Shown here one piece after another: positions 1,898 to 37,993 of a stretch of DNA of 64,000 bases (the first letter of the stretch is position 1; the number at the start of each line of letters is the position of its first letter). A program made the translations under genes and the position numbers. The stretch comes from an uncultured virus (IMG/VR IMGVR_UViG_3300037234_000959). Taxonomy: Duplodnaviria; Heunggongvirae; Uroviricota; Caudoviricetes. Below the pieces are notes generated by a model. That model did no database searches. It saw only the letters and a program-made list of their open reading frames with translations, and was not told where the DNA came from. The stretch lies in IMG/VR virus record IMGVR_UViG_3300037234_000959. One strand, 5' to 3'.

Positions 1898-2221
1898 ATG
1901 AATATCAAAACGACAGATGAAGCTAGAAAGAGAATCGCCGAGGCTGGAATTACGAAAGACAATGTGACGGATGAGCAACTACAGATACTTAGGAATTGTA
2001 TTTGCGCAAGAATGATAGACAGTGGTAACTACAACGGCACTTATCGGATGGATGAAAAAGTATCGTTGTTCATGACATGCAGCACCGAGCAATGGGAAGG
2101 GCGAGAGGCTGTTTCTTTTAACAGGGATGACTTCATAGGCTTCGCTGGATGGTCTGATAATAATAACATCCAACCCATATTGCAAGGCGTAGGGGATTGG
2201 CTGACAGCACTTAGTGTCTAA
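1898..2221 (+). CDS. Phage hypothetical protein
   Basis: ORF with REAVSFNRDDFIGFAGW; stop codon overlaps an attC box. Confidence 0.65.
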   Translation: MNIKTTDEARKRIAEAGITKDNVTDEQLQILRNCICARMIDSGNYNGTYRMDEKVSLFMTCSTEQWEGREAVSFNRDDFIGFAGWSDNNNIQPILQGVGDWLTALSV

Positions 2222-2284
2222 CGGTTTGATAACCTGCTGACATAAACGAAGTGTTGGCGGTCAGAGTGCATTATTGGGTTAGGC
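2216..2284 (-). other. Integron attC site
   Basis: Minus strand GCCTAAC-CCAAT-AATGCACTCTGACCGC...GCAGGTTATC-AAACC-GTTAGAC: R''/L''/L'/R' layout, 69 bp. Confidence 0.75.
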
Positions 2285-2311
2285 GAAACAACCTTAATTT
2301 AGAGGGTAGAC

Positions 2312-2575
2312 ATGAAAAATAATTCAGTTAGCGGCATAAAAACAATTAATTTAAACGAAAAACTTTCCGTTGAAAGACATGGAGAAAAAATATTAGCATA
2401 CACATTTCATTTCCCAGATGAAAGCGCGGATTGCATAATATGGAAACTTAAATATGGAAATGGGAAATTTCAACTTATTGCAATAAACGATGAGTATTCA
2501 AACGAAGAAATAATTATTTCTGGTGAAAGAGTTGGGACTAAATGCAATATTGATATCGAGAAATCAGGAGCCTAA
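2312..2575 (+). CDS. AT-rich cassette-borne hypothetical protein
   Basis: ORF with GAGGG RBS, bounded by complementary GTTAGGC (2278-2284) and GCCTAAC (2570-2576). Confidence 0.7.
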   Translation: MKNNSVSGIKTINLNEKLSVERHGEKILAYTFHFPDESADCIIWKLKYGNGKFQLIAINDEYSNEEIIISGERVGTKCNIDIEKSGA

Positions 2576-2606
2576 CAGGTGCTTACCCGCAAAAATGCGG
2601 GGATAT
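2570..2606 (-). other. attI-like site with internal palindrome
   Basis: GCCTAAC-N5-(CCCGCA AAAA TGCGGG); palindrome centre 17.5 nt from the AAC. Confidence 0.55.
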
Positions 2607-2690
2607 TGGATATTAAAGCGAAAAAGCGGAAAGCATAGATACTTTTTTTGCCCTCACTGTTCTGCATTAAAAACACTAAGGAGGTGACGT

Positions 2691-3062
2691 ATGCAAGAGG
2701 ACCTGTTTAAGGAGCGCGAAAATCAGAATATGTCCGATGAGGTGAGGAAGATTTACGACCTCATCTGTCATCACAGGGAAAAAAAGAATGGCATTAAAGT
2801 AAAAAGGATCACCGCATTAACCGGCATCCCGGACCGGTCAGTGAGAGACACCATAAAGGTCTTGGTGGAAACTTACAACCAGCCTATAGGCTCCGGTTCA
2901 TCCGGCTTCTTCATCGCGCAGTCAAGTGAAGAGATACTGGAGGTATATCACAACCTCCTTTCAAGGGCTTTCTCTATATTGAAGCGTGCAAAGGTCTTCA
3001 AGAATAATGCGCACTTAGATGAGGCATTAGGTCAGTTAAGGATGGAACTCAAACCCTCATGA
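2691..3062 (+). CDS. HTH DNA-binding protein
   Basis: IKVKRITALTGIPDRSVRDTIKVL...PIGSGSSGFFIA winged-HTH pattern; GGAGG RBS. Confidence 0.65.
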   Translation: MQEDLFKERENQNMSDEVRKIYDLICHHREKKNGIKVKRITALTGIPDRSVRDTIKVLVETYNQPIGSGSSGFFIAQSSEEILEVYHNLLSRAFSILKRAKVFKNNAHLDEALGQLRMELKPS

Positions 3063-3082
3063 TTAATAGGAAAGAGAGATCT

Positions 3083-3322
3083 ATGCAAAATTCAATGATT
3101 ATAGATTCAAGCATTTTAAACAAGGAAATAAAAACACACCACATTTGTTCTGGCAGGGATTGCAAAGGAAGTAGTGAAAGTATTCCAACTTTCTACGCTG
3201 CAAAGCATGCTTCAAGTGAAGGGTAGAGAAAGACAAAGCATATTAAATTTTGTAAGCCTGGCAAAACATATGTTTGGGTATGCCCATCCTGCGTAGCTGC
3301 TTTTGATTGGGCAAAAGAATAA
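3083..3322 (+). pseudogene. Zn-finger gene interrupted by in-frame TAG
   Basis: ATG 3083...CSGRDC...EG*RKTK...WVCPSC...TAA 3322; TAG at 3224-3226. Confidence 0.55.
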
Positions 3323-3572
3323 GTCATGAAAAATTTAGGGTGCGGAACTATTCCGATCAAGATACTCCCAGTGCATCACTTTAGTTCGGCATCTTATTAT
3401 AAGTAGAAAGAAAAGGGGCACCCTGCCAAGTCTTGCGAGCACAGCAAGCGGCCCCGATAAATTAAATTGAGTATTTCGCCAAGGGTTTACCGGGGCATAC
3501 TCGAACGGTTTGCCAGAACCGAAATAACCTTCAGTCCACGCTATTAGGCACGGACACGAAAGGAGCATTGTT

Positions 3573-4097
3573 ATGAAGAAAGGAAAAGATAATACAGAAC
3601 GGATCCCTTGCGAGAGTTCGGGAAGCAAGGCGCTACCAGCCCTTTGGGAAGAGGGGGGCGGGAAGAGGAATACTGGAAGAGCTCAGATTATCTGTAACTC
3701 GGAAGGCCTACCAAAGAAGTCTCATTTCATAAAAAAATCAGGTACCAGGGCAAACGGCCAGCACGCTTTTCTTTACATAGAAAAGGGAGACGTTATCATC
3801 CGAGCTGAACGTAGCCAGGGAGATATCCAGATTAAGATCTCAGAGATTACTGGCTTCGATATGGAAGGTGAGCCTTATTTGGCCAATCTAAGGCTACTCT
3901 CTGAGTATTCGCATGGCGAATGGACCAACCTGCACGCTACTTTAAGGCTTGGCAGGGCCATTGGCGCCGCTAAAGATAAAATCTCTTGTTATCATTGTCG
4001 TATGCCGCATTATGTTGATGTCGTCGATATCTCTGCTTTATGCTCTTACAACGTAGCGCATAAAACCAACGAGAAGGAGGCAACCCATGTCGCATAA
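3573..4097 (+). CDS. Hypothetical protein
   Basis: AAGGAG RBS; 174-aa ORF. Confidence 0.6.
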   Translation: MKKGKDNTERIPCESSGSKALPALWEEGGGKRNTGRAQIICNSEGLPKKSHFIKKSGTRANGQHAFLYIEKGDVIIRAERSQGDIQIKISEITGFDMEGEPYLANLRLLSEYSHGEWTNLHATLRLGRAIGAAKDKISCYHCRMPHYVDVVDISALCSYNVAHKTNEKEATHVA

Positions 4098-5283
4098 CAA
4101 TGACAATGAAACCGGGGCGCATACGCCTGGTGTAGCAAGAGTTGTCGCAAATGGCGACCTCGAAGAAATACGCACCATACTGGGAGACCGCGAGAGGATC
4201 CGCTATGAGGGTGTCATAAGGCCGGGAATAAAAATACCTCTGGCTCGCTGCACTCCAAAAGAAAAAGAGATCTACAAGGAACTTTATGCCGACAACATCC
4301 CTTTCAACGAGATTGATAAAAAGATGGGAGGCACCGGTAGTTCGAAGCTGAGGCCTTCCAACTGCGACTATTTTACTGTTCGTGAGAATGATTTCAAAAA
4401 TCCGGCAAACGCCCGCCTCATCATGGAAAAGTATGCAGACGAAGATGGTCACGTAAGGCGCTTGCCTATCTGGTTTCCGCTCGGCGAAATACATATGGTT
4501 ATTCCTCATAATTTCAGGGCATTCAGTACCGGTGGCATACGGGCATATTCCTTTTACGAGGGAAATGAGTTGATGTGCAAGCACGTCCCTAAAGACATTA
4601 AAACCCCCAAGAAAGATGACTGGAAGATCAGGCCTTGTGAGGAAACCGCATGCAAGGCATACACAACCAAGGCTTGCCGATTTGGGGGAATATTTAAGGT
4701 CAATGTTCCCGGAGTTAGCGGCATGGGACAAGTGATAATACCAACAAACTCATGGTATGGCCTTGGCGATGCGATAGCCAACCTCAATATGGTTCGTGAA
4801 GTTTATGGACGATTTAACGGGCTTTTCAATGGTAAGCCCTTCCTTGAACTCTGCAAGGTTCAGGAAGAGGTTAAGATCCCCGGGGGAGGAAAACAGAAAC
4901 AATGGCTCCCAACAATTGTTCCTACTGTGGATATGATGGAGCTTGCCCAACATTGCGACCCTGTAAGTATAAGGAACCGGTCTGCTGAGGCCCACTCCCT
5001 CTTGGGAAAACGCAAGGAACCTGAAGCGGCGAAGGGATGTGAAGACACCGCAGAGGCTGTCAAGGCACTTGAGGGCCTTGCTGCCAGGGCGGATGTATCA
5101 ATGGATAAAATCAAGTCATACATCGAGAGAGACTTCACTAGCGAAAGCGGCGTCGCCTTCGAAGACATGTCCGTTGACGAACTGAGGGACGTTTATAGTG
5201 AAATGCACAAAAGGCTTAAGGCCAACAAGGGCGAGTTTATCCAGTACGTCTGCGATGTTCACCAGGAAGAGGGGAGGGCATGA
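4087..5283 (+). CDS. Gp3-like / recombination directionality factor-like protein
   Basis: G.IRPGIK, DYFTV...DF, Cys cluster and TNSWYG motifs; next to sbcCD. Confidence 0.55.
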   Translation: MSHNNDNETGAHTPGVARVVANGDLEEIRTILGDRERIRYEGVIRPGIKIPLARCTPKEKEIYKELYADNIPFNEIDKKMGGTGSSKLRPSNCDYFTVRENDFKNPANARLIMEKYADEDGHVRRLPIWFPLGEIHMVIPHNFRAFSTGGIRAYSFYEGNELMCKHVPKDIKTPKKDDWKIRPCEETACKAYTTKACRFGGIFKVNVPGVSGMGQVIIPTNSWYGLGDAIANLNMVREVYGRFNGLFNGKPFLELCKVQEEVKIPGGGKQKQWLPTIVPTVDMMELAQHCDPVSIRNRSAEAHSLLGKRKEPEAAKGCEDTAEAVKALEGLAARADVSMDKIKSYIERDFTSESGVAFEDMSVDELRDVYSEMHKRLKANKGEFIQYVCDVHQEEGRA

Positions 5284-5480
5284 AAGCATATCTGACCGAA
5301 CTCGAAGCATTTCTCCTTAAAAATGGATGTGACATAGGGGCCTGCGGATTTTGCCCCAAACTCATAGGCAAGGCCTGCAGACACCGTGACCATCCCGGCA
5401 ACACGGCAAAGCAGATGGAGTCTGATATACGCACCGGGCGCAAGAGACATATCGCTGGCCTTTCTATAACTTTTCATTAA
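5280..5480 (+). CDS. Small Cys-rich hypothetical protein
   Basis: ATGA overlap with the upstream gene; CGFC motif. Confidence 0.5.
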   Translation: MKAYLTELEAFLLKNGCDIGACGFCPKLIGKACRHRDHPGNTAKQMESDIRTGRKRHIAGLSITFH

Positions 5481-5510
5481 GGTCATTAAAAATAAGACTT
5501 GGAGGAAAAA

Positions 5511-6848
5511 ATGATTAATCGAATTTTACACACGGCTGACCTGCACTTCTCACCTAAAGCAGACAAGCTCGAAGAAACGATCCGCTGTTCCAACTATATG
5601 CTAGATGTGGCCAAAGAAGAAAAACCGGACGTGGTCATCCTAGCTGGAGACACAATTGATTGTTACGATGGCACTATCAAGCTCGATTCACCAACTGCCA
5701 GGGCGGCGATCAATTTTGTTCAGCGTTGCGCAAGCATCGCGCCCGTTATGATCATCAAGGGAACCAACAGCCACGACCGGAAGGCGCCATACATCTTTCA
5801 GCACCTGCAGGCGAAATATCCGATCTATGTGGGCATGGAGCTTGAGCAGGTTGCGCTGGTTAAAGTTATGGGAGAAAACGGGTGGTCTGGTGGTGGACAT
5901 AAAATGCGTTTTGCACCGCTATCTGAAGCTATGGCAGACGACCACGAAAAAGAAATGATAGCCGCCTTCACCCTCCTTCCAAGCGTTGACAAGAGCTACC
6001 TATACGCAAAAGTGGAGGGCGGCATCCAGGAAGGAAACGCCCAGATTAGGGAACTTCTTCATGACGTGCTGGCCGGGTTCGGCCTGGTTAACGACACGAT
6101 ATCCGCCCCCTGCATTCTTGTTGGCCACGGCATGATAACGGGATCTGAGTTCAGCAGCGGACAAACCGCCATAGGTGAAGACCTCGAATTTGGCGTAGGG
6201 GATCTGCATGCGGCCAAGTGCGACTACTACGCCATGGGACATGTGCATAAATACCAGTCATTTCCCGGCCACGTCTATTACTCCGGTTCTCCCGGTCGCC
6301 TTAATTTTGGTGAGCAGGAAGAGAAAGGATTCCTCATGCCTGAGTTTGAAGGACGGGATGTCAAAGAAGTAAAATTCCATCCCACCCCTGCCCGTCGCTT
6401 TGTCTTCGGAGAAGCCGACTGGCGGGAGGGGGGGAAGGAGGCCGTTCTTTCCAGTATGTCCAAATGTCTTGAAGACTGCAAAGGTGCGGACGTGCGCTTC
6501 AGGTATTCCATCACCGAAGAGGAGCAGACCGCTATCAGGAAGGATGATATTGAAAAGCAGTTTGTTGATGCCGGCGCAAAGAGGGTTAAGATCGAATGCC
6601 AGATACTGCCCAAGGAGCGAGCACGGGCTGAAGGTATAAGCAAGCTTGAGGGCCTTCCGGCTAAGGTTCTTAAATGGGGCGAGACGGTCGGTGAAACCAT
6701 CCCGCAGTCAGTCCTGGATATTGCGGAGGTTATTGAGGGTTTGGACAGTGAAGAACTTATCTCCATGGCCCTAGAGAAAATCGACAGTACTCCACCTGTA
6801 GAGGTTGAGAGTCCTCCGGTCGAGGAAGGTCAAGCATCTCTGCTCTAA
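5511..6848 (+). CDS. sbcD: SbcD/Mre11-family metallophosphoesterase nuclease
   Basis: HTADLH, AGD, GTNSHD, GHG, GHVH and YSGS motifs; GGAGG RBS before ATG 5511. Confidence 0.9.
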   Translation: MINRILHTADLHFSPKADKLEETIRCSNYMLDVAKEEKPDVVILAGDTIDCYDGTIKLDSPTARAAINFVQRCASIAPVMIIKGTNSHDRKAPYIFQHLQAKYPIYVGMELEQVALVKVMGENGWSGGGHKMRFAPLSEAMADDHEKEMIAAFTLLPSVDKSYLYAKVEGGIQEGNAQIRELLHDVLAGFGLVNDTISAPCILVGHGMITGSEFSSGQTAIGEDLEFGVGDLHAAKCDYYAMGHVHKYQSFPGHVYYSGSPGRLNFGEQEEKGFLMPEFEGRDVKEVKFHPTPARRFVFGEADWREGGKEAVLSSMSKCLEDCKGADVRFRYSITEEEQTAIRKDDIEKQFVDAGAKRVKIECQILPKERARAEGISKLEGLPAKVLKWGETVGETIPQSVLDIAEVIEGLDSEELISMALEKIDSTPPVEVESPPVEEGQASLL

Positions 6849-6850
6849 GT

Positions 6851-6971
6851 GTATAACATAAAGATAATCAGCGGCCTGAGCCGCATAATTTAAGGGAGGG
6901 ATTGAAGAATGAAAGCATTGAAAACCGGATTAAAAACCGTGTTGGCCGTCTTTTTCATCGTGGGGTTAGTT
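6851..6971 (-). other. Integron attC site
   Basis: Minus strand AACTAAC-CCCAC-GAT[G]AAAAAGACGGCC...GGCCGCTGATTATC-TTTAT-GTTATAC, 121 bp. Confidence 0.7.
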
Positions 6972-7130
6972 GGATGCGCTGATAAAGAGCAAGGAAAGAC
7001 ACTTGAATTGGCTGAAAATTTTGCGAGAAATTCAGCCATCTATGGCTATGGTGCGGCAAGCAGAGGAGATAGTTTTGAAGAAATGTTGATTAAATATGAT
7101 GCTGCGATAAAAATAACAGAAGCCAATTAA
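6909..7130 (+). CDS. Small lipoprotein (cassette-borne)
   Basis: Signal peptide with lipobox LVGC; starts inside the attC loop. Confidence 0.7.
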   Translation: MKALKTGLKTVLAVFFIVGLVGCADKEQGKTLELAENFARNSAIYGYGAASRGDSFEEMLIKYDAAIKITEAN

Positions 7131-7170
7131 TAAGGATTATATAGACATATGTCTACATAACACTCAAAAG
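7123..7170 (-). other. attI-like palindromic site, copy 1 of a ~34-bp repeat
   Basis: TTATATAGACATATGTCTACATAACACTCAA (7137-7167), nearly identical to 11456-11486. Confidence 0.6.
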
Positions 7171-7250
7171 GCTGTCAAGGCTAAAGAGCCTTATGCTGAG
7201 TGCATCACTTAACGACGATATCTTAATATATAGAAAATCAAGGAGCAATC

Positions 7251-9854
7251 ATGAAACTCGAATCATTACTGTTAAAAGCATCCAAGGGCATACGCGCAGG
7301 CATGGGCCTGGAAGAAGTATTTATAGACCTGACAAAAATCCCGGCAGGGCTTATCGCCGTTGTGGGGGAAAACGGAAAAGGAAAAACGACCATTCTGGAC
7401 AACCTCCATCCTTTCAGGATGATGCCCTATAAGATGAGAAAGTGCAAGAACTGGTCTCCAGCGGCATTCACCTACTACGATCAATTCTACGGCAGCGATG
7501 GCGTAAATGAACTTATCTTCGAGATGGGGGGAGAGAGGTACCGAAAGTATATTCTTATCGATGCTGACCGGAAAAAACAGGAGGCCTATTTTTACAAAGA
7601 GGTTGACGGAGAGTGGAAGCCTTTTGAAGAAAATGGCATAGCGAAAAGCGACGGCAAAACTGCCACCTACGATGCGGCCGTTGAAGCGGTCTGCGGATCC
7701 CCTTCCCTCTTCTTCACCTCAGTCTTTCGCTCCCAGGGGGCAAAGAACCTCTCCGACTACACCCGAGGGGATATCATGGAGATTATCGCTGAGCTCCTTA
7801 ACATTAATCACATCAAAGAACAGGGCGCCAAGGCCGGCGAGGTTGAAAAACACCTCAAGGCCCTCATCGCCCTTGATAACAGCAAGCTCGATATGCTGAA
7901 AGAGTCCATTGATAACCATGATGAGCTGACAGCAACCCTGAACAACAAAAAACAGATCATTGTCAATTACGAGTTCATCATTTCTAATACCACCAAGGAG
8001 ATTGAAGAGAAAAAGGTGGAACTTTCCGGTATTGAGAAAAAAGAGGCGGCGAGAGAATCCGAAAAGGCAAGGCTTAAAGACCTTACAGATGTTCAGGCGC
8101 AGGATGGTTCTGGTCTCGTTGTGTTGGCCCTGGAGAAAAAGGAGCACGAAACCGCCTTTGAGTCCGCCACAGCAAATACAACTGAAAAGCTTACTCGTGC
8201 AGAAGGAGTCCTTGTCACACTGGATGAAGAAAAGAAAGAGCATGAAACCGCCCTTGAGACCGCTACGGCAGATATCAATAAAAAGCTGGCTACGGTCGAA
8301 AAGATTGTTAGCGGCGAAAAAGGAATCAGGGAGAAGGTAGTAGAAGAGAAGACGAAAAAAGATGAAATGGCAAAGAAGAAGACATATCTCCTCGAAGAGG
8401 AAACCGAAAAAGAAACTCTTGAGGATAGGAAAGAACGACTTGCCGAAAAAGAAAAAAGGTTCTCTGATATTAAGATCCAATTAAATGAAGCTAAGTCTCT
8501 TCATGAAAGAGAAATTCAAAGCGCCAAAACCACCCTTGAGCAGGCAGAGCGAGAAGCTGCCAAGCTTGACGGTGTTGATTGCAAGGGAGACGGTGCCGCA
8601 TGGATTAACGAAGGCTGCCTGTTTATCAAGGATGCCGCAGAGGCAAGGACCAGCCTAGAAAAGCTCCGCGCAGACCTGGAAGAAAAATCCAAGCTATCAG
8701 CTGAAATTCTTGAACTCGAAAAAGATCTTAGAGGTCTTCCTGCCATAGAGGCAGAGCTTAAGGATATTGCAGAGTTGCAAACCAGGAACAATAAGTTGAT
8801 AGGCGACTATCGCACCGCCATATCAGTACTAGAAGCAGAGCTCGTCGAAATAGCCAGGTGGACAAAACTTGTACCTCAGATCGACAGGGCCGCAGAGGAT
8901 ATCGAAAGGCTGACGACTGATCTAAAGGTATGTGGAGAGGAAAAGACAAAGGCCATTGATAGGGTCATCATTCAAATCGGCAAAGCAAGGGAAGATATTG
9001 AAGGCCTGGAGGCCGATATTGCCACCAAAGACAAAGAGAGGGTAAAGGCACTGGAGAAGATCGATGGCAAAAAAACCGATATAGAAAAACGTATAAGCGA
9101 AAGAGCTGTTGATATAACAAGACTCACCGCCGCCCTTGGCCAGGATATGGAAACGCTTACCCGAGACATCACAAATGCCATAGGAGAGAAGGCGACCGAG
9201 CTTCGCAGCATAGAGAATAATAAAGAGTTTGTCCAAGGGGAGATAGGGAAGTTAAATGGCAAGCTTGAAGAGATCGTGAAAAAGCAGGGCGAGATCAAGG
9301 TGATTGATAAACGTGTGTCCAGCATTAACAAGGAGATAGCAAAGTGGTCTCTCCTTGCGAAGGCATGCTCCAATGACGGAATTATTCCATTAGAGATTGA
9401 CGATGCGGCCCCAAGTATCTCCGGAATAACCAACGACCTCCTTACTGAGTGTTATGGTTCTCGCTATAGCATTAAGATGGTTACACAGAGCGCAAACGCT
9501 AAAGGAGGGATGAAGGAGAATTTCGATATTCTCGTTTTCGACTCAGAAACTGGTGAATCAGTATCCATTACTGAGAAGTCGGGCGGACAAACAACATGGA
9601 TTGAAGATGCCCTCACTCGGTCTATATGTCTTTACAATATCCATAATTCAGCAAAGGCATATGGCACTATGTTCTGTGATGAAAAGGACGGGATGCTTGA
9701 CCGTGATAAAAAGATGGAGTTTATCGCAGTAAAACGTAAGGCCCTGGCGTTAGGATCTCATGAAAGGGAAATATTCATCAGCCAAACGAAAGACCTTCAG
9801 GATATGGCAGATGGAAAAATTATGTTGACTGATAAAGGAGTAGTACTTTCATAA
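7251..9854 (+). CDS. sbcC: SbcC/Rad50-family SMC-like ATPase
   Basis: Walker A GENGKGKT, long coiled coil, central Cys pair, SGGQ signature, Walker B CDEKDG. Confidence 0.9.
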   Translation: MKLESLLLKASKGIRAGMGLEEVFIDLTKIPAGLIAVVGENGKGKTTILDNLHPFRMMPYKMRKCKNWSPAAFTYYDQFYGSDGVNELIFEMGGERYRKYILIDADRKKQEAYFYKEVDGEWKPFEENGIAKSDGKTATYDAAVEAVCGSPSLFFTSVFRSQGAKNLSDYTRGDIMEIIAELLNINHIKEQGAKAGEVEKHLKALIALDNSKLDMLKESIDNHDELTATLNNKKQIIVNYEFIISNTTKEIEEKKVELSGIEKKEAARESEKARLKDLTDVQAQDGSGLVVLALEKKEHETAFESATANTTEKLTRAEGVLVTLDEEKKEHETALETATADINKKLATVEKIVSGEKGIREKVVEEKTKKDEMAKKKTYLLEEETEKETLEDRKERLAEKEKRFSDIKIQLNEAKSLHEREIQSAKTTLEQAEREAAKLDGVDCKGDGAAWINEGCLFIKDAAEARTSLEKLRADLEEKSKLSAEILELEKDLRGLPAIEAELKDIAELQTRNNKLIGDYRTAISVLEAELVEIARWTKLVPQIDRAAEDIERLTTDLKVCGEEKTKAIDRVIIQIGKAREDIEGLEADIATKDKERVKALEKIDGKKTDIEKRISERAVDITRLTAALGQDMETLTRDITNAIGEKATELRSIENNKEFVQGEIGKLNGKLEEIVKKQGEIKVIDKRVSSINKEIAKWSLLAKACSNDGIIPLEIDDAAPSISGITNDLLTECYGSRYSIKMVTQSANAKGGMKENFDILVFDSETGESVSITEKSGGQTTWIEDALTRSICLYNIHNSAKAYGTMFCDEKDGMLDRDKKMEFIAVKRKALALGSHEREIFISQTKDLQDMADGKIMLTDKGVVLS

Positions 9855-9855
9855 T

Positions 9856-10581
9856 ATGAGAAAAAGACCGGTTAAAGATAGATTCATAGAAAAGCTCGGA
9901 TCTACGACACTATCTACTGGCTGTATTGATTGGCAGGGTGCTAAAAATGATCAAGGGTACGGGCAACTCTCTGTTAATGGTAAACCAAGAGCTGCACACA
10001 TTATCGCCTATGAATTATTTGTCGGGGAAATAAAGAAGGGCCTTTGCGTCATCCATAGGTGTAAAAATAAATCATGCGTCAATCATCAACATCTCTACCT
10101 TGGCAGCCGTGGCGACTACCAGCGACAGAACCTAAAAGAACGTCTGGTAAAAAAACATGGTAAACCTACAGAAACAGGCTGTATAGAGTGGCAAGGACAC
10201 CGCAATGCTTCAGGATATGGGGTAGTTCGTGTCAACAGGGCCACAAAGCTAGCTCACCGAGTTTCTTATGAGGTCTTTGTTAAAGAGATACCAAAGGGAC
10301 TGCAAGTTCTACATAAATGCGACAATCCGGCATGTGTAAATACCGAACATTTATTCCTTGGTACTCATCAAGATAATATGGCAGACAAAAAGAAAAAAGG
10401 GAGAGATGCCATAGGTGAAGCAGTCGGCTGCAGTAAGCTAACTCCAGATGATGTTAGAAAAATAAGAAAAATGAACTCAACTGAGGAGTATTCACTAAAT
10501 CAGATCGGGAGAGTTTTTGGTGTGAGCCATAAAACAATTCAAAAGGTCGTTAATGGTATAACATGGAAACATGTTATCTAG
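9856..10581 (+). CDS. Free-standing HNH homing endonuclease (tandem HNH domains plus HTH)
   Basis: Two CxxWxG...AH...HxCxNxxCVNxxHL units and a C-terminal HTH. Confidence 0.85.
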   Translation: MRKRPVKDRFIEKLGSTTLSTGCIDWQGAKNDQGYGQLSVNGKPRAAHIIAYELFVGEIKKGLCVIHRCKNKSCVNHQHLYLGSRGDYQRQNLKERLVKKHGKPTETGCIEWQGHRNASGYGVVRVNRATKLAHRVSYEVFVKEIPKGLQVLHKCDNPACVNTEHLFLGTHQDNMADKKKKGRDAIGEAVGCSKLTPDDVRKIRKMNSTEEYSLNQIGRVFGVSHKTIQKVVNGITWKHVI

Positions 10582-10649
10582 CCTCGGTATTGCAGGAGAT
10601 GTCCGATGCAAGGATCGTTCTTAGTGACCAAGGCGTAACGGTGCAGTAG
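10581..10649 (+). pseudogene. Displaced remnant of the sbcC 3' end
   Basis: Translates ASVLQEMSDARIVLSDQGVTVQ*, matching SbcC C-terminus TKDLQDMADGKIMLTDKGVVLS*. Confidence 0.75.
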
Positions 10650-10654
10650 GTTTC

Positions 10655-11023
10655 ATGACAAACGAAAAAGATCCTGAAAATATCTGGCTGCTTGAGAGCA
10701 AACAATCTGCAAAAACGTTCGCTGACAAGAGATTAGCGCCACGGCAAGCAGAGATGAATTCATGTGACATTAGGGGATTCTACAATGCAAAGCTTGGCAT
10801 ACCTTACGTGTCTCCCGGAGTAAGGACAATAAATGTCCTCATCCACGGGACTGTTCAGGAATGGACCGCTTACCCTCCCGCCAACGAAGACCCCGACACA
10901 CTGACAGTCAAAAATCATCACGATTATGCTTCGGATGTGTCATTGATCTTCAACGTGAAAACAAAGGAATTAGTCGACTTCAGGAAGAATCATTTTTTAA
11001 GTGAGGCTAAATGGATAGATTGA
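10655..11023 (+). CDS. Hypothetical protein
   Basis: 122-aa ORF in operon orientation. Confidence 0.55.
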   Translation: MTNEKDPENIWLLESKQSAKTFADKRLAPRQAEMNSCDIRGFYNAKLGIPYVSPGVRTINVLIHGTVQEWTAYPPANEDPDTLTVKNHHDYASDVSLIFNVKTKELVDFRKNHFLSEAKWID

Positions 11024-11167
11024 ATAAAGGAGTTCAAGGGCTTGGTTCTATTGCCTGCCTATTAACGAGAAAAGGATAAAACCATGTTTTGTGATAAGGA
11101 GGCTCATTTTATTTATGTGACACCTGCCACAATGCTTTGAGTTCACACGGAACAAATTGCGAGAGCA

Positions 11168-11225
11168 ATAGAACGAAAGAATTAACTGCGCGGCATAGCC
11201 GTCCAAATTGAATGGCATGTTATGG
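11168..11225 (-). other. Integron attC site
   Basis: Minus strand CCATAAC-ATGCC-ATT[C]AATTTGGACGGC TAT GCCGCGCAGTTAAT-TCTTTC-GTTCTAT; 58 bp, 5/6 spacers, extra C in L''. Confidence 0.8.
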
Positions 11226-11449
11226 CACACTTAATTAGAAAGGGGCAGATCACGGCAGAAATAGAACAGGAAGTTAAGACATTTACAGTATATTATTTAT
11301 GTGATGAATGTGGCAAAGGGCGGATGGAGCCAACAGGAATATGTCTGACAAGCAACCCGCTACAATGGCCCCATAAATGTAATAAATGTGGAAGTGAGAA
11401 AACATTTAAGGTGAAATATCCAAGAACTATTTATAGGAATGGGCCATAA
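11222..11449 (+). CDS. Zn-ribbon protein (cassette-borne)
   Basis: CDEC...CNKC; bounded by GTTATGGC and GCCATAAC. Confidence 0.7.
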   Translation: MAHLIRKGQITAEIEQEVKTFTVYYLCDECGKGRMEPTGICLTSNPLQWPHKCNKCGSEKTFKVKYPRTIYRNGP

Positions 11450-11490
11450 CCATGTTTATATAGACATATGTCTATATAACACTCAAGAGG
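11443..11490 (-). other. attI-like palindromic site, copy 2
   Basis: Perfect 24-bp palindrome TTATATAGACATATGTCTATATAA at 11456-11479. Confidence 0.6.
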
Positions 11491-11595
11491 GAGTACTTTA
11501 TTAACTGAACAATGAGAGGAGATTTAAAAAAAGCCCCGCCCCGCTGCCAAGCGAAGCAGGGCAATAAGAAAGGAGCCGCGAACGGCTTGTACTGG

Positions 11596-11626
11596 CCGGA
11601 CTGTTATAGAGCAGTCCGGTTTTTTG
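11596..11626 (+). terminator. Intrinsic terminator at the early/late convergence
   Basis: CCGGACTG...CAGTCCGG followed by a T run. Confidence 0.65.
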
Positions 11627-11771
11627 TTTGGCTTGTACCCCTATATAAGCACCTGCGATAAAACTCAAGGGGAGCCAAAAACTCTTTGATTTGTACCAGG
11701 GCACGCTGCGGTAGTCTGCCAAGGCCTTGCCGCAAGTGGTGGCCTCGCTCTTCCAGTCCCCCGCCCTACCA

Positions 11772-12563
11772 TCACTTCATCTCCGCAAGTTTTGTTTTTA
11801 TCATTGCTTCCGTATTCTTCCCCCATACACCATCGGCAACCAGTCCATTACGTGACTGAAATCCAACAAGGGCCTGTTTTGATGCAGGGCCCCACATCCC
11901 GTCGATAGATCCAACATAGTAACCTAGAAGATTTAAGGCCGTCTGCCTGCCTTTGATAGAAGAAAGATCAACGCTAACCCCGGCATTCGCCCTGATAGCC
12001 AGGATCATCGCCCGCAGCGTATTTCCGGGGCACGCGGGCTTACCGAAATCGAAATGGCCGTAAAGTTGCGAATCACTCCAACCCCACAGTTCACGACAGA
12101 CATCCCATAAAGCGAGGCCCGCAAGCATCTGTTTTCTGTTCGGCTCACCAGACCTTGATGACACATGCCCTTCACCCTTAAAATCACCTACGAACATGAC
12201 TGACATGAATTCGGCATTTTCGTCACCGGGCCTGTCTCGATCGCCATGGCTCCATGTAGATTTATTAAAGTCATTGCAAAGGTGAATCCGACCGCTCTCA
12301 TCAATAGCGAGGGTGTAGAGAATAGATTCGGTCCCTCCTTCCACGACATGACTTTGGGGGCCAGTGTGGTACTTTGCAACCGCTTCAATGGAGTTCCAGG
12401 CAAGTTCCTGGTGCCAGACGAGGCCATCGAGCTTATGTATCAACCTCGTTTTAAATTTCCGGCCTTCCGCATTTACCGGCAAAGAGTCACGAACATCTAT
12501 AGGCTCCTGAAGGCCCAGGACCTTCATTTTTTCCATCAACATTGCAAGCAGCTTCTTTTCCAT
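11772..12563 (-). CDS. Endolysin: N-acetylmuramoyl-L-alanine amidase with peptidoglycan-binding domain
   Basis: Amidase_2-like H...YT...SH...GHFDF..KPACPG; C-terminal DGxWG PG-binding repeats. Confidence 0.85.
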   Translation of the reverse strand: MEKKLLAMLMEKMKVLGLQEPIDVRDSLPVNAEGRKFKTRLIHKLDGLVWHQELAWNSIEAVAKYHTGPQSHVVEGGTESILYTLAIDESGRIHLCNDFNKSTWSHGDRDRPGDENAEFMSVMFVGDFKGEGHVSSRSGEPNRKQMLAGLALWDVCRELWGWSDSQLYGHFDFGKPACPGNTLRAMILAIRANAGVSVDLSSIKGRQTALNLLGYYVGSIDGMWGPASKQALVGFQSRNGLVADGVWGKNTEAMIKTKLAEMK

Positions 12564-31089: not shown

Positions 31090-31109
31090 GGGTTAATGAA
31101 AGATGTTAC

Positions 31110-32634: not shown

Positions 32635-33363
32635 CTACGCTGCGGGAATCTCTAAGCCTATAATCTTCTTGACATCATCGGGAAGCCCGAGCACACCTTT
32701 TGAAGCAAAGGCGCTCAAGAAGTAAGGCTTAACAGTGCCGTCATCAATAGCCTTCTTGAGGTCTGCCTGGATTTCCGTCCGGCTTTTCACCATCTGCTCG
32801 CCCTGATCGGTTTTATCAGCCCCGAGCTGGGTCTTTGATGCTCCGACGGGCTGTTTGCCTGCCTGTGCAGAAACGTCCTGAACAGACTTTGTGAGATGGC
32901 CAACTACAGAGGCCTGCTTAAAGACGACCGTGGAGAGAAGTTTCATTCCACTCAAAAGAGTATCGAGCTTGGCATCTACACCTGCAGTGCCAGCTTCTAC
33001 AGACTTTCTGAGATCAGCAAATTCCTCACTTGCCTTCACCATCTCCGCGTGTAGTTCCTCATCTCCGAGCTCAAGCCCTTCAAGCTCTGACTTGCTAAGC
33101 CCTTCCAGGTCGTCATCACCACCACCATCGCCGCCCTCATCACCCGACTCGTCACCGCTCTTGAAGAGACTCCCCATGGCCGCCTCGCTCTCTTCTACAG
33201 CCTTTTTGAGAGCATCAACCTCGGTAGGAACTACAGGTTCACCGCCGCCAAGAGCGGTCTCAGCCTCCCTGAGAGTATCCATAGCTTTTTTCAGATCCTC
33301 ATCGCTGGCTGTATTCCCCACCTGTTTTTTAGCTTCTACAGCTAACTCTTCCTCCGTCTTCAT
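32635..33363 (-). CDS. Scaffold protein
   Basis: Acidic helical protein between protease and capsid, with nine hydrophobic-x-K(S/A) motifs. Confidence 0.7.
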   Translation of the reverse strand: MKTEEELAVEAKKQVGNTASDEDLKKAMDTLREAETALGGGEPVVPTEVDALKKAVEESEAAMGSLFKSGDESGDEGGDGGGDDDLEGLSKSELEGLELGDEELHAEMVKASEEFADLRKSVEAGTAGVDAKLDTLLSGMKLLSTVVFKQASVVGHLTKSVQDVSAQAGKQPVGASKTQLGADKTDQGEQMVKSRTEIQADLKKAIDDGTVKPYFLSAFASKGVLGLPDDVKKIIGLEIPAA

Positions 33364-33392
33364 ACACATTCCTCCTTTTGCTATTTGATTTT

Positions 33393-34316: not shown

Positions 34317-34429
34317 TTTCCTCCAAATCAAAAAAGGCGACACTAAAAGGAATTCTCCCCTCAAATGCCGCCTATAATCCTTACTGGCTAACGACCGGTT
34401 AAGGCCCTGGCTTGCTCAGATCAAGCGAT

Positions 34430-34612
34430 TTATTCGGTTTTCATTATGAGACCGCCCTTGCGGGTTTTCTCAATCACATATCCCCTGCCTTCGTGCTGAA
34501 ACCGGCAAGGAAATGAATCTATTTTAACGACAGGAACGGGAGCCCCCTTCCTGCTCTTCCTCAACAAGAACACACTGGATAACTTTTTCTTGTGGCTATC
34601 GATTTTATCCAT
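34430..34612 (-). CDS. Small HemP-like protein
   Basis: FQHEGRGYVIEKTRKGGLIMK resembles the HemP family motif. Confidence 0.45.
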   Translation of the reverse strand: MDKIDSHKKKLSSVFLLRKSRKGAPVPVVKIDSFPCRFQHEGRGYVIEKTRKGGLIMKTE

Positions 34613-34620
34613 TTCTTAAC

Positions 34621-34654
34621 ATTATATGATAGTATTCGTCATATACAAAACATT
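34621..34654 (-). promoter_or_regulatory. Putative late promoter
   Basis: AATGTTTTG-N19-TATAAT. Confidence 0.65.
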
Positions 34655-34793
34655 CCTAATAAAAATATTTCTTTTTTCGCAAAACACCTTTAATGCATCA
34701 CTTTAACTCGGCATCTTATTATATATAGAAGGAAATTGATTAAATCTTAAAAGAAACAGTTGATTTCATTAAGTATTTATTTTCACTTTAAGC

Positions 34794-34822
34794 TTGACAC
34801 CTATACCCCACTGGGATACAAT
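34794..34822 (+). promoter_or_regulatory. Sigma70 promoter of accessory island
   Basis: TTGACA-N17-TACAAT, with an imperfect inverted repeat in the spacer. Confidence 0.75.
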
Positions 34823-34874
34823 AAGAATCAAGAGGTGAGGAAAACGCCCAAACCGGAACCAGGGAGAAAGAAAA

Positions 34875-35128
34875 TGAAGAAAGTATATATAGCAAGCGGC
34901 AATGAGGGTACACTGGGAGTTTTTACTAATCACGACGCGGCATATCAAAGAATATGTCTTGAAGTAGAGAATGCAAATGATTTGCAAGTATCGAGAAAGG
35001 AATCAGAAAGGCTGGTCAATATGCACGAATATGGATCTGTTCTTATTAGGCACGAAACAACTGCTTTCCATATCAATGTTGAGCCGCTACAAGTCAATAA
35101 TGCCCTGAAGCTAAATGGGACAACATGA
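34875..35128 (+). CDS. Hypothetical protein
   Basis: ATG after GGGAG, downstream of the promoter. Confidence 0.55.
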
Positions 35129-35340
35129 CACCCCAGCAAATCAAAGAGGCCCGGCAAAAGCTGGGCATCTCCCAAGTCGAAATGGCTGAACTTTGCGGCA
35201 TCGACAAAGGGACGTGGTTAAAATGGGAAAAAGGAACACGGAAACCGAACGCTATTGGACTGCAACACATTAAGGTTTTGATGTGGCTGGACAAAATAGG
35301 GAGACTTGCCGACTGGCAATTACAAAATAAAATTAACTAG
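35125..35340 (+). CDS. XRE-family HTH regulator
   Basis: IKEARQKLGISQVEMAELCGI...WEKG.RKP. Confidence 0.85.
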   Translation: MTPQQIKEARQKLGISQVEMAELCGIDKGTWLKWEKGTRKPNAIGLQHIKVLMWLDKIGRLADWQLQNKIN

Positions 35341-35353
35341 GAGATTTAATCGT

Positions 35354-36091
35354 ATGGAAAGCACAAAAGAGGCACTAATAGAGTCCATCAAGAAAATGAT
35401 ACCCGTTGGGAATAGACTAGAACTGCCCAAGAACGATATTTTTCCAAACTATGCTCAGGTGAAAAAGGCATTAATAACTGCTGGTGGAAAATATAAGAAA
35501 TGTGGTTTTGAGTTTACGGAAAATGCAGAGGTAATTCAGAGTAGATTAGTGGGTGGCGAGGCAATTAACGATAAGAAAAAATACCAGTTTTTTGCCACTC
35601 CTTCAGAGTTAGCAGAGCGCTTAGTTGCATTGGCTGAGATAACGCCATATTGTAGGGTTGGTGAGCTTCAGGCCGGGCAAGGTGCTATTGCTAACTTGGT
35701 TAAACCAATTGCAAGAGAGTGTGTAGTTGTGGAGCTTATGCCCGAGAACTGTAAGGCCCTGCTAAGACAAGGCTGGAATGTGATCGAGGGCGACTTACTA
35801 TCTATGAGTATTAAGGATTTAGGCGGAGGTTTTGACAGAATCATAGCAAACCCACCATTTACAAAGAACCAAGATGTTGACCACATTAAGCATATGTTTT
35901 CGATGTTAAATGCTAAAGGAAAGCTGGTCAGCATGGCAAGCAAAAGCTGGATACATGGAAGTCAGAAAAAGCAAGTTGCATTTAGAGATTGGTTGGACGA
36001 TGTTGATGCAACTATTACTGAGGTTCCCGCTGGTGCATTCAAGGAAAGTGGGACTTCTATTGGTACAGTTATCGTAGAAATTAATAAATAA
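35354..36091 (+). CDS. Amino (N6-adenine-type) methyltransferase
   Basis: FFATP, AGQGAIA SAM loop, IIANPPF, FKESGT. Confidence 0.8.
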   Translation: MESTKEALIESIKKMIPVGNRLELPKNDIFPNYAQVKKALITAGGKYKKCGFEFTENAEVIQSRLVGGEAINDKKKYQFFATPSELAERLVALAEITPYCRVGELQAGQGAIANLVKPIARECVVVELMPENCKALLRQGWNVIEGDLLSMSIKDLGGGFDRIIANPPFTKNQDVDHIKHMFSMLNAKGKLVSMASKSWIHGSQKKQVAFRDWLDDVDATITEVPAGAFKESGTSIGTVIVEINK

Positions 36092-36130
36092 ACGACTGCA
36101 GGTAGCAGCATAAATTTGAGAAGGTTGCCA

Positions 36131-36655
36131 ATGTTTAAGGATAATAGGAATTCTTACTCGACATCTAACAAGTTGACCCCGGAGAAGGTGCGACAGATAC
36201 TTGCTTACAATAATAAAACTGGTGTCTTTAGATGGAGGAAGGCCCCACGGCGAGGGATAAGGGCTGGTTCTATTGCAGGACACACCAATAAAAGAGGTTA
36301 TGTAGAAATTAGGATTGATAAAACTCTTTATCTCGCTCACCGTTTGGCATGGCTATATGTAACCGGAGGGTGGCCAAAAGGAGAGATTGACCATATCAAT
36401 GCTAGTAAAGGGGACAACCGGTTTAGCAATTTACGCGATGCTACTCGCTCAGTGAATCAGCAGAATATGAAAAGAGCACAGAAAAATAACCATGTTGGGC
36501 TTCTCGGGGTATCTCCAAAAAGAAAAAAATGGCGCGCCCGAATTACTGTTGATAGCCGTGAGGTTAACCTCGGCGTGTATGATTCACCAGAAGAGGCGCA
36601 TAATGCTTACATTAAAGCGAAGCGTAAACTTCATAAAGAAGGTTGTGAAATTTAG
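36131..36655 (+). CDS. HNH endonuclease with AP2-like domain
   Basis: AHRLAW, IDHIN..K.DNR..NLR, WRARI...LG.YD. Confidence 0.85.
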   Translation: MFKDNRNSYSTSNKLTPEKVRQILAYNNKTGVFRWRKAPRRGIRAGSIAGHTNKRGYVEIRIDKTLYLAHRLAWLYVTGGWPKGEIDHINASKGDNRFSNLRDATRSVNQQNMKRAQKNNHVGLLGVSPKRKKWRARITVDSREVNLGVYDSPEEAHNAYIKAKRKLHKEGCEI

Positions 36656-36675
36656 CGGCATAGAAAGGAGCGGCC

Positions 36676-36861
36676 ATGCCTACAAAAAGAAAACCTACTG
36701 AAGATGGGTCCGAAGATCTTCTCGCAGCATGTGTAAGGCTAAAGGCGAGGATCGAAAAAAAACTTAAGTCTGGCAAACTAAGTCAGGAAGATAGAACTAA
36801 ATTTGAAAGGGCCTTAAGAGCAACCAAGCGAAACATAGGAAAGGCTAAGAGGATGATTTAA
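36676..36861 (+). CDS. Small basic hypothetical protein
   Basis: AAGGAG RBS. Confidence 0.5.
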   Translation: MPTKRKPTEDGSEDLLAACVRLKARIEKKLKSGKLSQEDRTKFERALRATKRNIGKAKRMI

Positions 36862-36873
36862 GGGAGAAACAAA

Positions 36874-37056
36874 ATGACACCGACAAAAGTGTGCACCATG
36901 ATGAATAAAGCTTATGATATATTGAAAACTATGAGCATTGATGAAATAAAGCAAGCGTCAAAAAAGGTAGCATCTAGCATGTCTTTAGGTCAGACAATTC
37001 TTTTTCAGCATCAATGTCGATTTGCAATCTCTAAAAAGATATCGGGGGCGTGGTAG
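36874..37056 (+). CDS. Hypothetical protein
   Basis: GGGAG RBS. Confidence 0.5.
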   Translation: MTPTKVCTMMNKAYDILKTMSIDEIKQASKKVASSMSLGQTILFQHQCRFAISKKISGAW

Positions 37057-37060
37057 TAAA

Positions 37061-37501
37061 ATGACAATCAAGCTTGATCAAATTGTTATTTCTGCATTTC
37101 CTGGCACCGGCAAAACATATCTTTGTGCTAAATCGAGGAGATGTTTGGTAGAAAAAGAGTGCTGGGAGTTTTCAAAGGCAGCTAACTTTCCGGAAAATTA
37201 TGTGAGTGAAATTAAGCATTCGATTGGCGGCGCAGATGCGGTTTTTATTAGCACAAACAAACAAGCGCTTGACATGTTAATTGTTGATGGGATTCCAGTT
37301 ATTTTAGTTTACCCAGTAATAGAATTAAAAAATGAATATATGGAGCGATATGTGGAGCGAGGAAGCCATCCAGATTTTATTGATGCCATGAACACATATT
37401 GGGAGCGGTGGCTAGAAGAGCTTAATAAGAGAAGTGATTGCAAAAAACACGTGCTGCAAGCTGGGCAATTTATCGAAAATGCAATGCCTTGGTTGGTATA
37501 A
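37061..37501 (+). CDS. P-loop (nucleotide kinase-like) protein
   Basis: ISAFPGTGKT; Y..RY..RG lid. Confidence 0.7.
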   Translation: MTIKLDQIVISAFPGTGKTYLCAKSRRCLVEKECWEFSKAANFPENYVSEIKHSIGGADAVFISTNKQALDMLIVDGIPVILVYPVIELKNEYMERYVERGSHPDFIDAMNTYWERWLEELNKRSDCKKHVLQAGQFIENAMPWLV

Positions 37502-37621
37502 CGCTATTCTCAGGGGCTTGCGGTTTAGAGCCCGAAACTTTATGACAAGGAAGAGGTGACAGAATGGGAAACGAAAAATCAGAGACATCGGCAGCAAGTC
37601 CCTTGCAGAAATTGGTTATGC
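37496..37621 (-). other. Integron attC site
   Basis: Minus strand GCATAAC-CAATT-TCTGCAAGGGACTTGC...GCAAGCCCCTGAGA-ATAGC-GTTATAC, 126 bp. Confidence 0.8.
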
Positions 37622-37962
37622 CGTTACAGCCTATTGCGAATGGCCGATTTGTGCCGAATCGTATAGTGGAGATATTACTTGAAGCCGCACCAATTGGCTT
37701 GAATGAACTCGCCTGTATGGAATTTACAGCACAAGAGAGGATGCAATTTGCACAGTTAATCGGATATTCTCTTTCTGGCTTCGGTGAACTTAGCTATGTT
37801 GATGATGAGACTTACACAGCCGCAGAGAAAGCAGCCGATGGCGTGACAGAAGAAGAAGCCAGGAGCGCGACATTAAGGGAACAGCTTGACGAAGCCCGAA
37901 AGGGAGTAAAGGCTGCGGCCTCCGTGTTGTTCAGAATGCACCCTGACGACTTAGAGGCATAA
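37564..37962 (+). CDS. Cassette-borne phage hypothetical protein
   Basis: QFAQLIGYSLSGFGELSYV motif; bounded by GTTATGCC and GGCATAAC. Confidence 0.7.
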   Translation: MGNEKSETSAASPLQKLVMPLQPIANGRFVPNRIVEILLEAAPIGLNELACMEFTAQERMQFAQLIGYSLSGFGELSYVDDETYTAAEKAADGVTEEEARSATLREQLDEARKGVKAAASVLFRMHPDDLEA

Positions 37963-37993
37963 CTAACGATGGTGGGAATTAATTCCTGATATC
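37956..37993 (-). other. attI-like site with internal palindrome
   Basis: GGCATAAC, then GGAATTAATTCC (37975-37986) centred 17.5 nt from the AAC. Confidence 0.55.

Follow-up and report, generated by a model that had tools for sequence, protein, structure and literature searches.

Four dispersed single-attC gene cassettes, probably of the integron type, in the plus-strand gene modules of an uncultured tailed phage

The 64,000-nucleotide stretch of DNA analysed here (IMG/VR record IMGVR_UViG_3300037234_000959; hereafter, the window) is the genome, or a large part of the genome, of an uncultured tailed phage. The only run in which the entire stretch was found is a marine sediment metagenome, which is probably the source. 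Four sites dispersed over the window are probably genuine attC sites of the integron type, each belonging to one small gene cassette (C1 to C4) that resides in the plus-strand gene modules and would be moved by an integrase acting in trans. All units share the same arrangement: read along the coding strand, each consists of a cut, the attC site in reverse complement, an open reading frame (ORF), its TAA stop codon and a second cut (Table 1; slashes within motifs denote cuts). The inversion of attC relative to the genes, which had been proposed in an original prediction made from the sequence alone, is thus found in all four cases, with attC on the minus strand and the ORF on the plus strand. 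Within the crossover core G/TTA, the TTA complements the TAA with which the ORF stops.

The sites were evaluated with covariance models derived from bacterial integrons. With intI1 of plasmid R100 as the query, 80 genome loci encoding IntI1 or its relatives were collected and AAC...GTT hairpins were sought upstream of intI. Model R1 was seeded with 38 hand-picked real attC sites (35 of the 48 unique candidates of one scan and three others, with near-copies and two doubtful candidates dropped); in the seed alignment, each pair of the R and L boxes is kept by 25-38 of the 38 sequences. Model R2 was rebuilt from the 117 sites that R1 found in 75 loci at E≤0.001. As a positive control of R1, 111 of 117 sites lie in integron loci, and 110 of these 111 are on the cassette-sense strand. 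Both models are home-made and their E-values are rough. Applied with the filters off to both strands (a search space of 128 kb), R1 yields six matches in the window at E≤10, and the top four coincide with the predicted sites, all of them full length, on the minus strand and at the predicted coordinates (28.4 bits for attC4, 17.1 for attC1, 15.7 for attC2 and 14.0 for attC3). The same four sites are the top matches of R2, with 30.4 bits for attC4 (E 6.5e-6), 19.4 for attC2 (E 0.0086), 19.0 for attC3 (E 0.011) and 17.2 for attC1 (E 0.036), and are followed by a next-best match of 11.0 bits. Neither model has a match at E≤10 on the plus strand at any of the four sites, so that the predicted polarity of attC holds along with the positions, and the search of both strands supports all four sites. 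In 98 kb of unrelated phage-like loci with a similar G+C content, the best scores are 13.1 bits for R1 and 10.5 bits for R2; in 76 kb of other loci retrieved with the SbcD-like protein as the query (with locus L005, discussed below, excluded), the best score is 10.7 bits. R2 also finds attC sites in all three fetched phage genomes that are published as carrying attC site clusters without an integron-integrase (CALINs), namely three sites in TJE1, three in H101 and four in MW202573; for TJE1, three is also the published count (PMC9892861). The strand call of the model is reliable: the L005 sites score 32-55 bits on one strand and at most 11.6 bits on the other.

The architecture of the four sites is that of attC. 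The outer R'' and R' boxes, ending with AAC and starting with GTT, respectively, are present in the inverse orientation at each site, with 4-6 of the 7 R box pairs formed, and each site has both a bulge that follows the third L'' base and an A left unpaired within GAC. The first bulge on the top strand is a C in attC3 only and a G in the other three sites. Among 18 phage sites that are outside the model, 88% of the pair cells are paired compared to 64.9% in shuffles (0 of 500 shuffles reach 88%), compensatory changes are found in 15 of the 20 pairs, and slid controls give 27-39%, in an alignment that was fitted to the model and hence favours the structure.

The second line of evidence comes from the ends of the cassettes. 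In an integrated cassette, the six bases past the upstream G/TT are its own and pair with the R'' of the same cassette. The original prediction listed complementary end motifs, all ten of which lie at the places given, namely at positions 2278 and 2570 for C1 (GTTAGGC and GCCTAAC), 6965 and 7123 for C2 (GTTAGTTGG and CCAATTAAT), 11219 and 11443 for C3 (GTTATGGC and GCCATAAC) and 37615 and 37956 for C4 (GTTATGCC and GGCATAAC), as well as a fifth pair at 11045 and 11165 (GTTCTATTGC and GCAATAGAAC). Compared with the reverse complement of its own R'', the end is exact in C1 (7/7), C3 (8/8) and C4 (8/8), so the claim stands for these three cassettes; it stands only in part for C2 (7/9), and at the fifth pair neither model supports an attC. 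That the TAA stops of the ORFs are part of the right-hand motifs initially looked like a trivial source of complementarity. Across the background, a 7-mer ending with AAC has its reverse complement 100-700 nt upstream in 98 of 1967 cases (0.050); such a counterpart at three of the four sites corresponds to P = 4.8e-4. All four plus-strand ORFs end with TAA at the inferred cut, which reads TAA/C but TAA/T in C2. On the left, the cut of C1 directly follows the TAA of the phage ORF 1862-2221 and that of C4 directly follows the TAA of the phage ORF 37022-37501; the left cut of C2 is GTATAA/C, 8 nt past the stop of the SbcD-like gene.

The C2 ORF begins within the variable middle of attC2, which includes its ribosome-binding site and its first 21 codons, and the middle of attC4 similarly includes the ribosome-binding site of the C4 ORF along with its first 19 codons. 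The start codon of the C3 ORF lies within the R'' box, and its stop is at the cut GCCATAA/C. The right end of C4 lies 40 nt before a bidirectional terminator (38006-38035). The C1 ORF has no family match in Pfam, PHROGs or PADLOC, and the PADLOC search gave zero matches for all four cassette proteins. The N-terminus of the C2 protein, judging from its sequence, looks like a lipoprotein signal ending with LVGC. The AlphaFold model of the C4 protein, built from 5 sequences, has a mean predicted local distance difference test score (pLDDT) of 44 and is too poor for a fold search.

Table 1. Coordinates and properties of the cassettes, repeats and other features of the window.
Feature	Coordinates	Strand	Properties
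attC1 (69 nt)	2216..2284	-	R'' GCCTAAC, R' GTTAGAC; R box 6/7 pairs, L box 9/13 pairs
Cassette C1 (354 bp)	2222..2575	+	ORF 2312-2575, 87 aa; right end GCCTAA/C
attC2 (121 nt)	6851..6971	-	R'' AACTAAC, R' GTTATAC; R box 4/7 pairs, L box 11/13 pairs
Cassette C2 (274 bp)	6857..7130	+	ORF 6909-7130, 73 aa; between SbcD-like and SbcC-like genes
attC3 (58 nt)	11168..11225	-	R'' CCATAAC, L'' ATTCAA.., L' ..TTAAT, R' GTTCTAT; R box 6/7 pairs, L box 13/13 pairs
Cassette C3 (276 bp)	11174..11449	+	ORF 11222-11449, 75 aa, zinc-ribbon-like; phrog_9369, E 2e-9
attC4 (126 nt)	37496..37621	-	R'' GCATAAC, R' GTTATAC; R box 6/7 pairs, L box 12/13 pairs
Cassette C4 (461 bp)	37502..37962	+	ORF 37564-37962, 132 aa; right end GGCATAA/C
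C3b, possible decayed fifth unit	11024..11173	-	motif pair 11045 and 11165
44-nt repeat, copy 1	7128..7171		starts at right cut of C2; contains 24-nt palindrome TTATATAGACATATGTCTACATAA
44-nt repeat, copy 2	11447..11490		starts at right cut of C3
Early/accessory genes	347-11449	+	include Gp3-like protein, SbcD-like, SbcC-like, HNH endonuclease
SbcD-like phosphoesterase gene	5499-6848	+	Metallophos
SbcC-like gene	7251-9854	+	phrog_77, 'SbcC-like subunit of palindrome specific endonuclease'
Lysis, tail and capsid genes	11772-34612	-	
Second small gene module	34760-37962	+	
Two HNH_3 endonuclease genes	9856-10581 and 36116-36655		one with HTH_38, one with AP2 domain
TnpB / IS605 OrfB gene	50861-52051	+	OrfB_IS605 2.8e-27, Cas12f1-like TNB, HTH_OrfB_IS605
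Remainder of window		-	HU protein, polyvalent protein, portal, DnaN, SSB

Comparison with related sequences shows that the cassettes are discrete units: C4 is common to phages with unrelated flanks, and the C3 site is empty in one contig. Relatives of the C4 protein, with 57-79% identity, are encoded in four other viral contigs, and in three of these (L163, L164 and L166) the start of the C4-family gene again falls in an attC of 120 nt on the opposite strand, as part of arrays with 2-4 attC sites. In the blastn comparison of C4 with L163, the 78% DNA identity covers window positions 37506-37963 only, with nothing else within 1 kb on either side; the L163 record has direct terminal repeats and is rated complete, and its attC sites, located in two separate places, are all on the minus strand. 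The four homologous C4-type cassettes start with AA/C and end with GAGGCATAA/C, and their flanks are unrelated. A homolog of the C3 protein is encoded inside a five-attC array in the viral contig L168. In IMG/VR, the C1 ORF has one weak match (31% over 49 aa) and no relatives of the C2 ORF were found.

Variants of the window itself were sought among contigs from four other marine sediment or cold-seep runs with at least 85% likeness to positions 1500-12000. One X3 contig fits the window from 11457 rightwards and, leftwards, reads ...GAGCAATAGAAC AAGTGC, where GAGCAATAGAAC is the sequence of window positions 11163-11174, the left edge of C3, and the 6-nt distance to the palindrome of the adjacent repeat is unchanged; this contig is suggestive of an empty C3 site. 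One X2 contig matches the window as far as 6857, where the left cut of C2 lies, and then continues with 197 differing letters whose beginning resembles another attC in reverse complement; one X2 contig holds only positions 11172-11216, the core of attC3, between other flanks. Because these are single assembled contigs, the population variants are suggestive rather than conclusive; contig joints with short sides or with the label 'between: not known' (6972-7187, 10987-11527 and 10876-11559) were left out of the evidence. The expectation that cassettes are gained or lost precisely at G/TT in relatives is therefore borne out for C4, by its occurrence in other contigs, and for C3, by the empty site, and in part for C2, by the departure at its cut; C1 has no usable relatives. 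A separate difference is seen at 3047-3359, where X2 and X6 contigs skip 313-318 bp and carry GTT or GTTAGAGC instead. The piece present only in the window holds the end of the ORF 2691-3062 and a small ORF 3059-3226; no attC-like site was found within 3047-3359, so this indel is of a different kind.

Two other explanations can be considered. One is that the hairpins are ordinary regulatory elements, such as terminators or RNA-processing or translational-control stems, whose likeness to attC is convergent. Each site is indeed located just upstream of or over an ORF start, two sites enclose the ribosome-binding site, a terminator-like stem on the minus strand (6884-6871) is found inside attC2, and the view that attC sites contain weak terminators is cited by Qi et al. 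(PMC9892861). Such elements, however, leave unexplained why the far end of the gene is the reverse complement of the outer box of the hairpin, and why homology between phages begins and ends at AA/C and the unit is missing or replaced there in relatives. The two roles are compatible with each other, and a purely regulatory nature of the hairpins appears very unlikely. The other explanation, that illegitimate recombination brought in a fragment of a host chromosomal integron of which the sites are dead remains, with no ongoing exchange, is hardly credible. The four units are spread over 35 kb at gene ends, with precise ends of their own, rather than forming one block; the direction of their ORFs is that of the phage operons, the C3 ORF has a PHROG match, C4 is common to phage contigs at different places, and the population variants differ at the cuts. 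What fits decay are the low scores, the two mismatches at the C2 end and the decayed appearance of C3b, and Vibrio phages with captured pieces of host integrons are documented in the same publication (PMC9892861).

The region denoted C3b corresponds to the fifth motif pair. On the minus strand, GCAATAGAAC at 11054-11045 exactly complements the 10 nt past the cut of attC3 and is followed by a TTGAA/TTCAA stem. This region lacks a GTT-type R' and an ORF, and C3b was rejected as an attC because R1 and R2 have no match there at E≤10. A copy of a 44-nt repeat starts at the right cut of each of C2 and C3; the two copies are 86% identical, and the pattern matches four times in the window (two places, both strands) compared to 0.61 expected. 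The repeat could serve as a landing pad or an operator. The minus-strand sequence at the head of C3 is TATAAAC-ATG-G/TT and that at the head of the L005 array is GCTAAAC-TAT-G/TT, compared with CTAAAAC-AAA-G/TT in attI1 (2 of the 9 heads inspected; the attI1 text was taken from plasmid R100, locus L082). Together, the 44-nt repeat and these attI1-like AAC-N3-G/TT heads hint at preferred landing pads.

The inverted arrangement extends beyond the window. The closest relative in IMG/VR, G001 (approximately 53% protein identity), contains no attC across the 64.7 kb scanned. In the syntenic, more distant L005 (36-48% identity over the same three genes), six attC sites, all on the minus strand, lie just past the SbcC-like gene. 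In four of the five junctions of L005, R' is the exact reverse complement of the next R'', and the sixth cassette ends with GGCATAA/C. The SbcD-like and SbcC-like genes overlap by 4 nt in L005 and are 402 nt apart in the window, with C2 between them. The L005 ORFs with family matches (Phage_ProQ_C_like, 1e-15, and HTH_31) are on the plus strand, and in four of the six cassettes a plus-strand ORF ends with TAA at the cut; all ORFs that have a family match or that stop at the cut are antisense to attC. The same orientation is found for the cassettes with a C3- or C4-family gene in L163, L164, L166 and L168. Altogether, among 24 attC sites in six sequences, the exact own-end 7-mer is present in 20, of which 12 coincide with the R' box of the next attC, and the longest plus-strand ORF stops exactly at the cut in 14 of those 20. 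According to the model, the attC sites of H101 and MW202573 are also opposite to the annotated genes; those of TJE1 are sense-oriented. Next to viral IntI genes, the strand of the longest ORF is antisense in 11 cases and sense in 8, a count that is too noisy in G+C-rich DNA to indicate a prevailing orientation. Two arrangements in these arrays deserve mention on their own. In the viral contig L187 (7625-8463), three attC sites are located on the strand of an IntI-like gene and downstream of it, in a 'reverse integron' layout rather than a divergent one. The inverted array of L005 includes a two-ORF cassette (14569-15183) encoding a 98-aa protein and an 82-aa helix-turn-helix protein, which looks like a toxin-antitoxin-style pair.

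In accord with the original prediction, the window encodes no detectable integrase: Pfam scans of 80 ORFs of the window reveal no tyrosine recombinase, and the lowest E in tblastn searches of the window with IntI1, an IntI relative and the recombinase of G001 is 0.023. At E≤0.001, the IntI model has no match in the five viral records with C3- or C4-family genes (four of which carry attC arrays and two of which are rated 100% complete); in the positive control, it has matches in 14 of 14 genomes. Relatives of IntI are encoded by IMG/VR viruses at 32 loci, 25 of them with 38-62% identity to IntI1, and many adjoin attC arrays (39 matches). The absence of IntI from the window and the five viral records and the uniform antisense layout, unlike that of bacterial integrons, would be compatible with real cassettes moved by a different enzyme, for instance, a phage-borne recombinase of the Xer type or another tyrosine recombinase, in a phage-specific cassette system. 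This possibility is unlikely, considering that the sites fit a model built from class-1-type bacterial attC sites only, with maximum scores of 55 bits (L005) and 51 bits (L168) and with the R and L boxes and the GAC bulge intact, and that the viral contigs with IntI relatives (the 25 loci above) often adjoin attC arrays. Furthermore, IntI1 has been shown to recombine phage-borne attC sites, as Qi et al. report for five others (PMC9892861).

With respect to classification, the label 'mini-integron' used in the original prediction is wrong because nothing in the window shows an attI site, a Pc promoter or intI. A complete integron, with intI beside the cassettes, is accordingly not present. The clustering distance for CALINs is 4 kb. 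The gaps between the window sites are 4,566, 4,196 and 26,270 nt, and the four units do not form a CALIN, which comprises at least two clustered attC sites (PMC9024848). Each of the four units instead has the composition of a lone attC site that lacks an integron-integrase (SALIN), that is, a single attC site with a coding sequence and with no integron-integrase or other att site nearby, in the definition of Loot et al. (bioRxiv 10.1101/2022.09.11.507474). Thus, the units fit single-attC cassette insertions of the SALIN kind rather than mini-integrons.

A number of observations weigh against the interpretation of the four units as integron-type cassettes. The window shows no enrichment of strict RYYYAAC...GTTRRRY pairs with a spacing of 45-160 nt, with 8 observed compared to a mean of 12.7 (sd 5.6) in 100 dinucleotide shuffles; the 8 pairs are 4 places counted per strand and include only attC1 among the four sites. 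Folding of both strands of the four sites as DNA did not give the expected support either, none of the eight folds being steadier than shuffles (z from -0.86 to +0.88). In view of the model support for the sites, these two tests are deemed insensitive: the consensus count is too blunt because real sites deviate from RYYYAAC and GTTRRRY outside the AAC and GTT, and the fold z-scores missed the sites because the stems are A+T-rich and two sites contain approximately 70 coding nt. The scores of three of the four sites, 17-19 bits, are far below the 30-72 bits of attC sites matched in integron loci (E≤0.001), and the E-values are rough. The far end of C2, CCAATTAAT, matches its own R'' in 7 of 9 positions and reads A/TT on the attC strand, outside the published G/WT core, and the left cut of C3, AGAA/C, does not fall at a stop codon. 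The C1 and C2 ORFs have no relatives usable for testing mobility, and the population evidence consists of single assembled contigs at 85% likeness or more, not of reads. Finally, we infer the role of IntI from the layout.

Some of these data would be expected if the matches arose by chance, with short AAC...GTT inverted repeats and TAA end motifs being accidents of intergenic DNA, the best of many having been picked. The unenriched consensus pairs and the folds no better than shuffles agree with that explanation, as do the E-values of 0.009-0.036 that roughly calibrated models give to three sites and the 7-mer background of 0.05 per anchor. Nevertheless, chance is extremely unlikely to account for four matches of at least 17 bits in 64 kb when none exceeds 10.5 bits in the 98 kb control, for the location of all four on one strand at gene ends, for exact own ends in three of the four at the P-value given above, for the conservation of C4 together with its attC as a unit with precise ends in three other contigs, and for the empty C3 site.

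Assuming that the units are indeed integron-type cassettes, the following mechanism can be envisaged. An integron integrase would join the folded bottom strand of a circular cassette, which corresponds to the plus strand of the window, to a G/TT core in double-stranded phage DNA, by the attC x attG route as described for bacterial genomes. In a packed phage operon, a harmless core would be the complement of a stop codon plus C (TAA/C). Insertion at TAA/C would preserve the upstream stop and set the polarity of attC opposite to transcription, such that only cassettes with antisense ORFs would be expressed, by read-through from phage promoters. The TAA/C of each cassette would recreate the target, and arrays could grow in this manner, as in L005. 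The integrase would be supplied by the host or by a co-infecting element, outside the window. Both the action of IntI in trans and the reading of cassettes from phage promoters are suggested by the layout. A more general proposition is that tailed phages have their own pool of cassettes, whose genes are all antisense to attC; with G/TTA serving as the TAA stop, a cassette could be dropped behind any gene that ends with TAA-C and would make the next landing site, which would amount to general, stop-codon-coupled swapping at many loci of integrase-less phages with integrases lent by hosts or other phages. This generalization is tentative and, in our assessment, falls slightly short of an even chance.

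The remaining features of the window show how the cassettes are embedded in the phage genome (Table 1). C2 is flanked by the SbcD-like and SbcC-like pair, a nuclease that cuts hairpins, which therefore is encoded beside hairpin-forming attC sites. The two HNH_3 genes, one in each plus-strand module, are likely homing endonucleases. The TnpB gene stands alone on the plus strand amid minus-strand phage genes and looks like a TnpB-only insertion sequence in the phage. A 32-nt direct repeat at 3370-3401 and 7199-7230 (78% identical; AGTGCATCACTT...ATCTTAWTATA) is located upstream of the genes starting at 3573 and 7251 and could act as a promoter or operator of the phage. A weak attC-like match is located at 38345-38407 on the minus strand, between the HU gene and the minus-strand gene that follows (11.0 bits, E 2 with R2; 9.3 bits with R1), which is at chance level. 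A megablast search of window pieces against 50,697 phage records gave zero matches, and scans of the window with Rfam (gathering thresholds) and for tRNAs found nothing. With the phage DnaN as the protein query, relatives come from mixed phyla.

Integrons have been treated as bacterial devices that are read from their own promoter, whereas the present data point to a mirror-image use of the sites by phages: small phage genes appear as antisense cassettes that are inserted singly at gene ends or arrayed and are common to unrelated, integrase-less phages. This suggests that small genes are traded among phages via the integron machinery. If so, this would be a concrete mechanism behind part of the mosaic accessory-gene content of phages and a route for cassettes between phages and bacterial integrons. 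It would also provide a sequence rule for finding such genes in viromes, namely an attC on the non-coding strand and an ORF ending with TAA/C.

Among known systems, the cassettes of classical class 1 integrons share with the window sites the R''-spacer-L''...L'-spacer-R' geometry, the bulged bases, the G/TT crossover and the complementarity of the cassette start to its own R''. The compact attC3 has box lengths identical to those of the 60-nt attC of aadA1 (plasmid R100, L082). In classical cassettes, however, the ORF runs in the direction of attC and is read from Pc beside attI and intI, whereas in the window the ORF is antisense, attC precedes it on the coding strand, and there is no intI, Pc or proven attI. 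The SALINs and attG sites of Loot et al., as described in that work (bioRxiv 10.1101/2022.09.11.507474), resemble the window units in having a lone attC with one coding sequence, a short G/WT core outside att sites (IntI inserting cassettes at genomic 5'-GWT-3' sites) and expression that depends on a nearby promoter. Those insertions are described for bacterial chromosomes and, in E. coli, show no strand or transcription bias; in contrast, all four window cassettes run in the direction of the operon and opposite to attC, and two of the four left cuts are exactly at an upstream stop codon. Phage-borne attC clusters with small ORFs and without an integrase have been published by Qi et al. (2023, Front Microbiol; PMC9892861). 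In these phage CALINs, the sites are clustered, whereas those of the window are single, 4-26 kb apart, with all ORFs antisense and stopping at the crossover point; the TJE1 and PH101 arrays are called typical there, and antisense ORFs go unremarked in the parts of the text examined. A literature search, whose coverage excluded most subscription journals, found no description of uniformly antisense phage cassettes or of stop-codon coupling. To the phage-borne attC sites, small ORFs and missing integrase that it has in common with the CALINs of Qi et al., the window adds insertion as dispersed single cassettes, targets at stop codons and a naturally occurring empty site.

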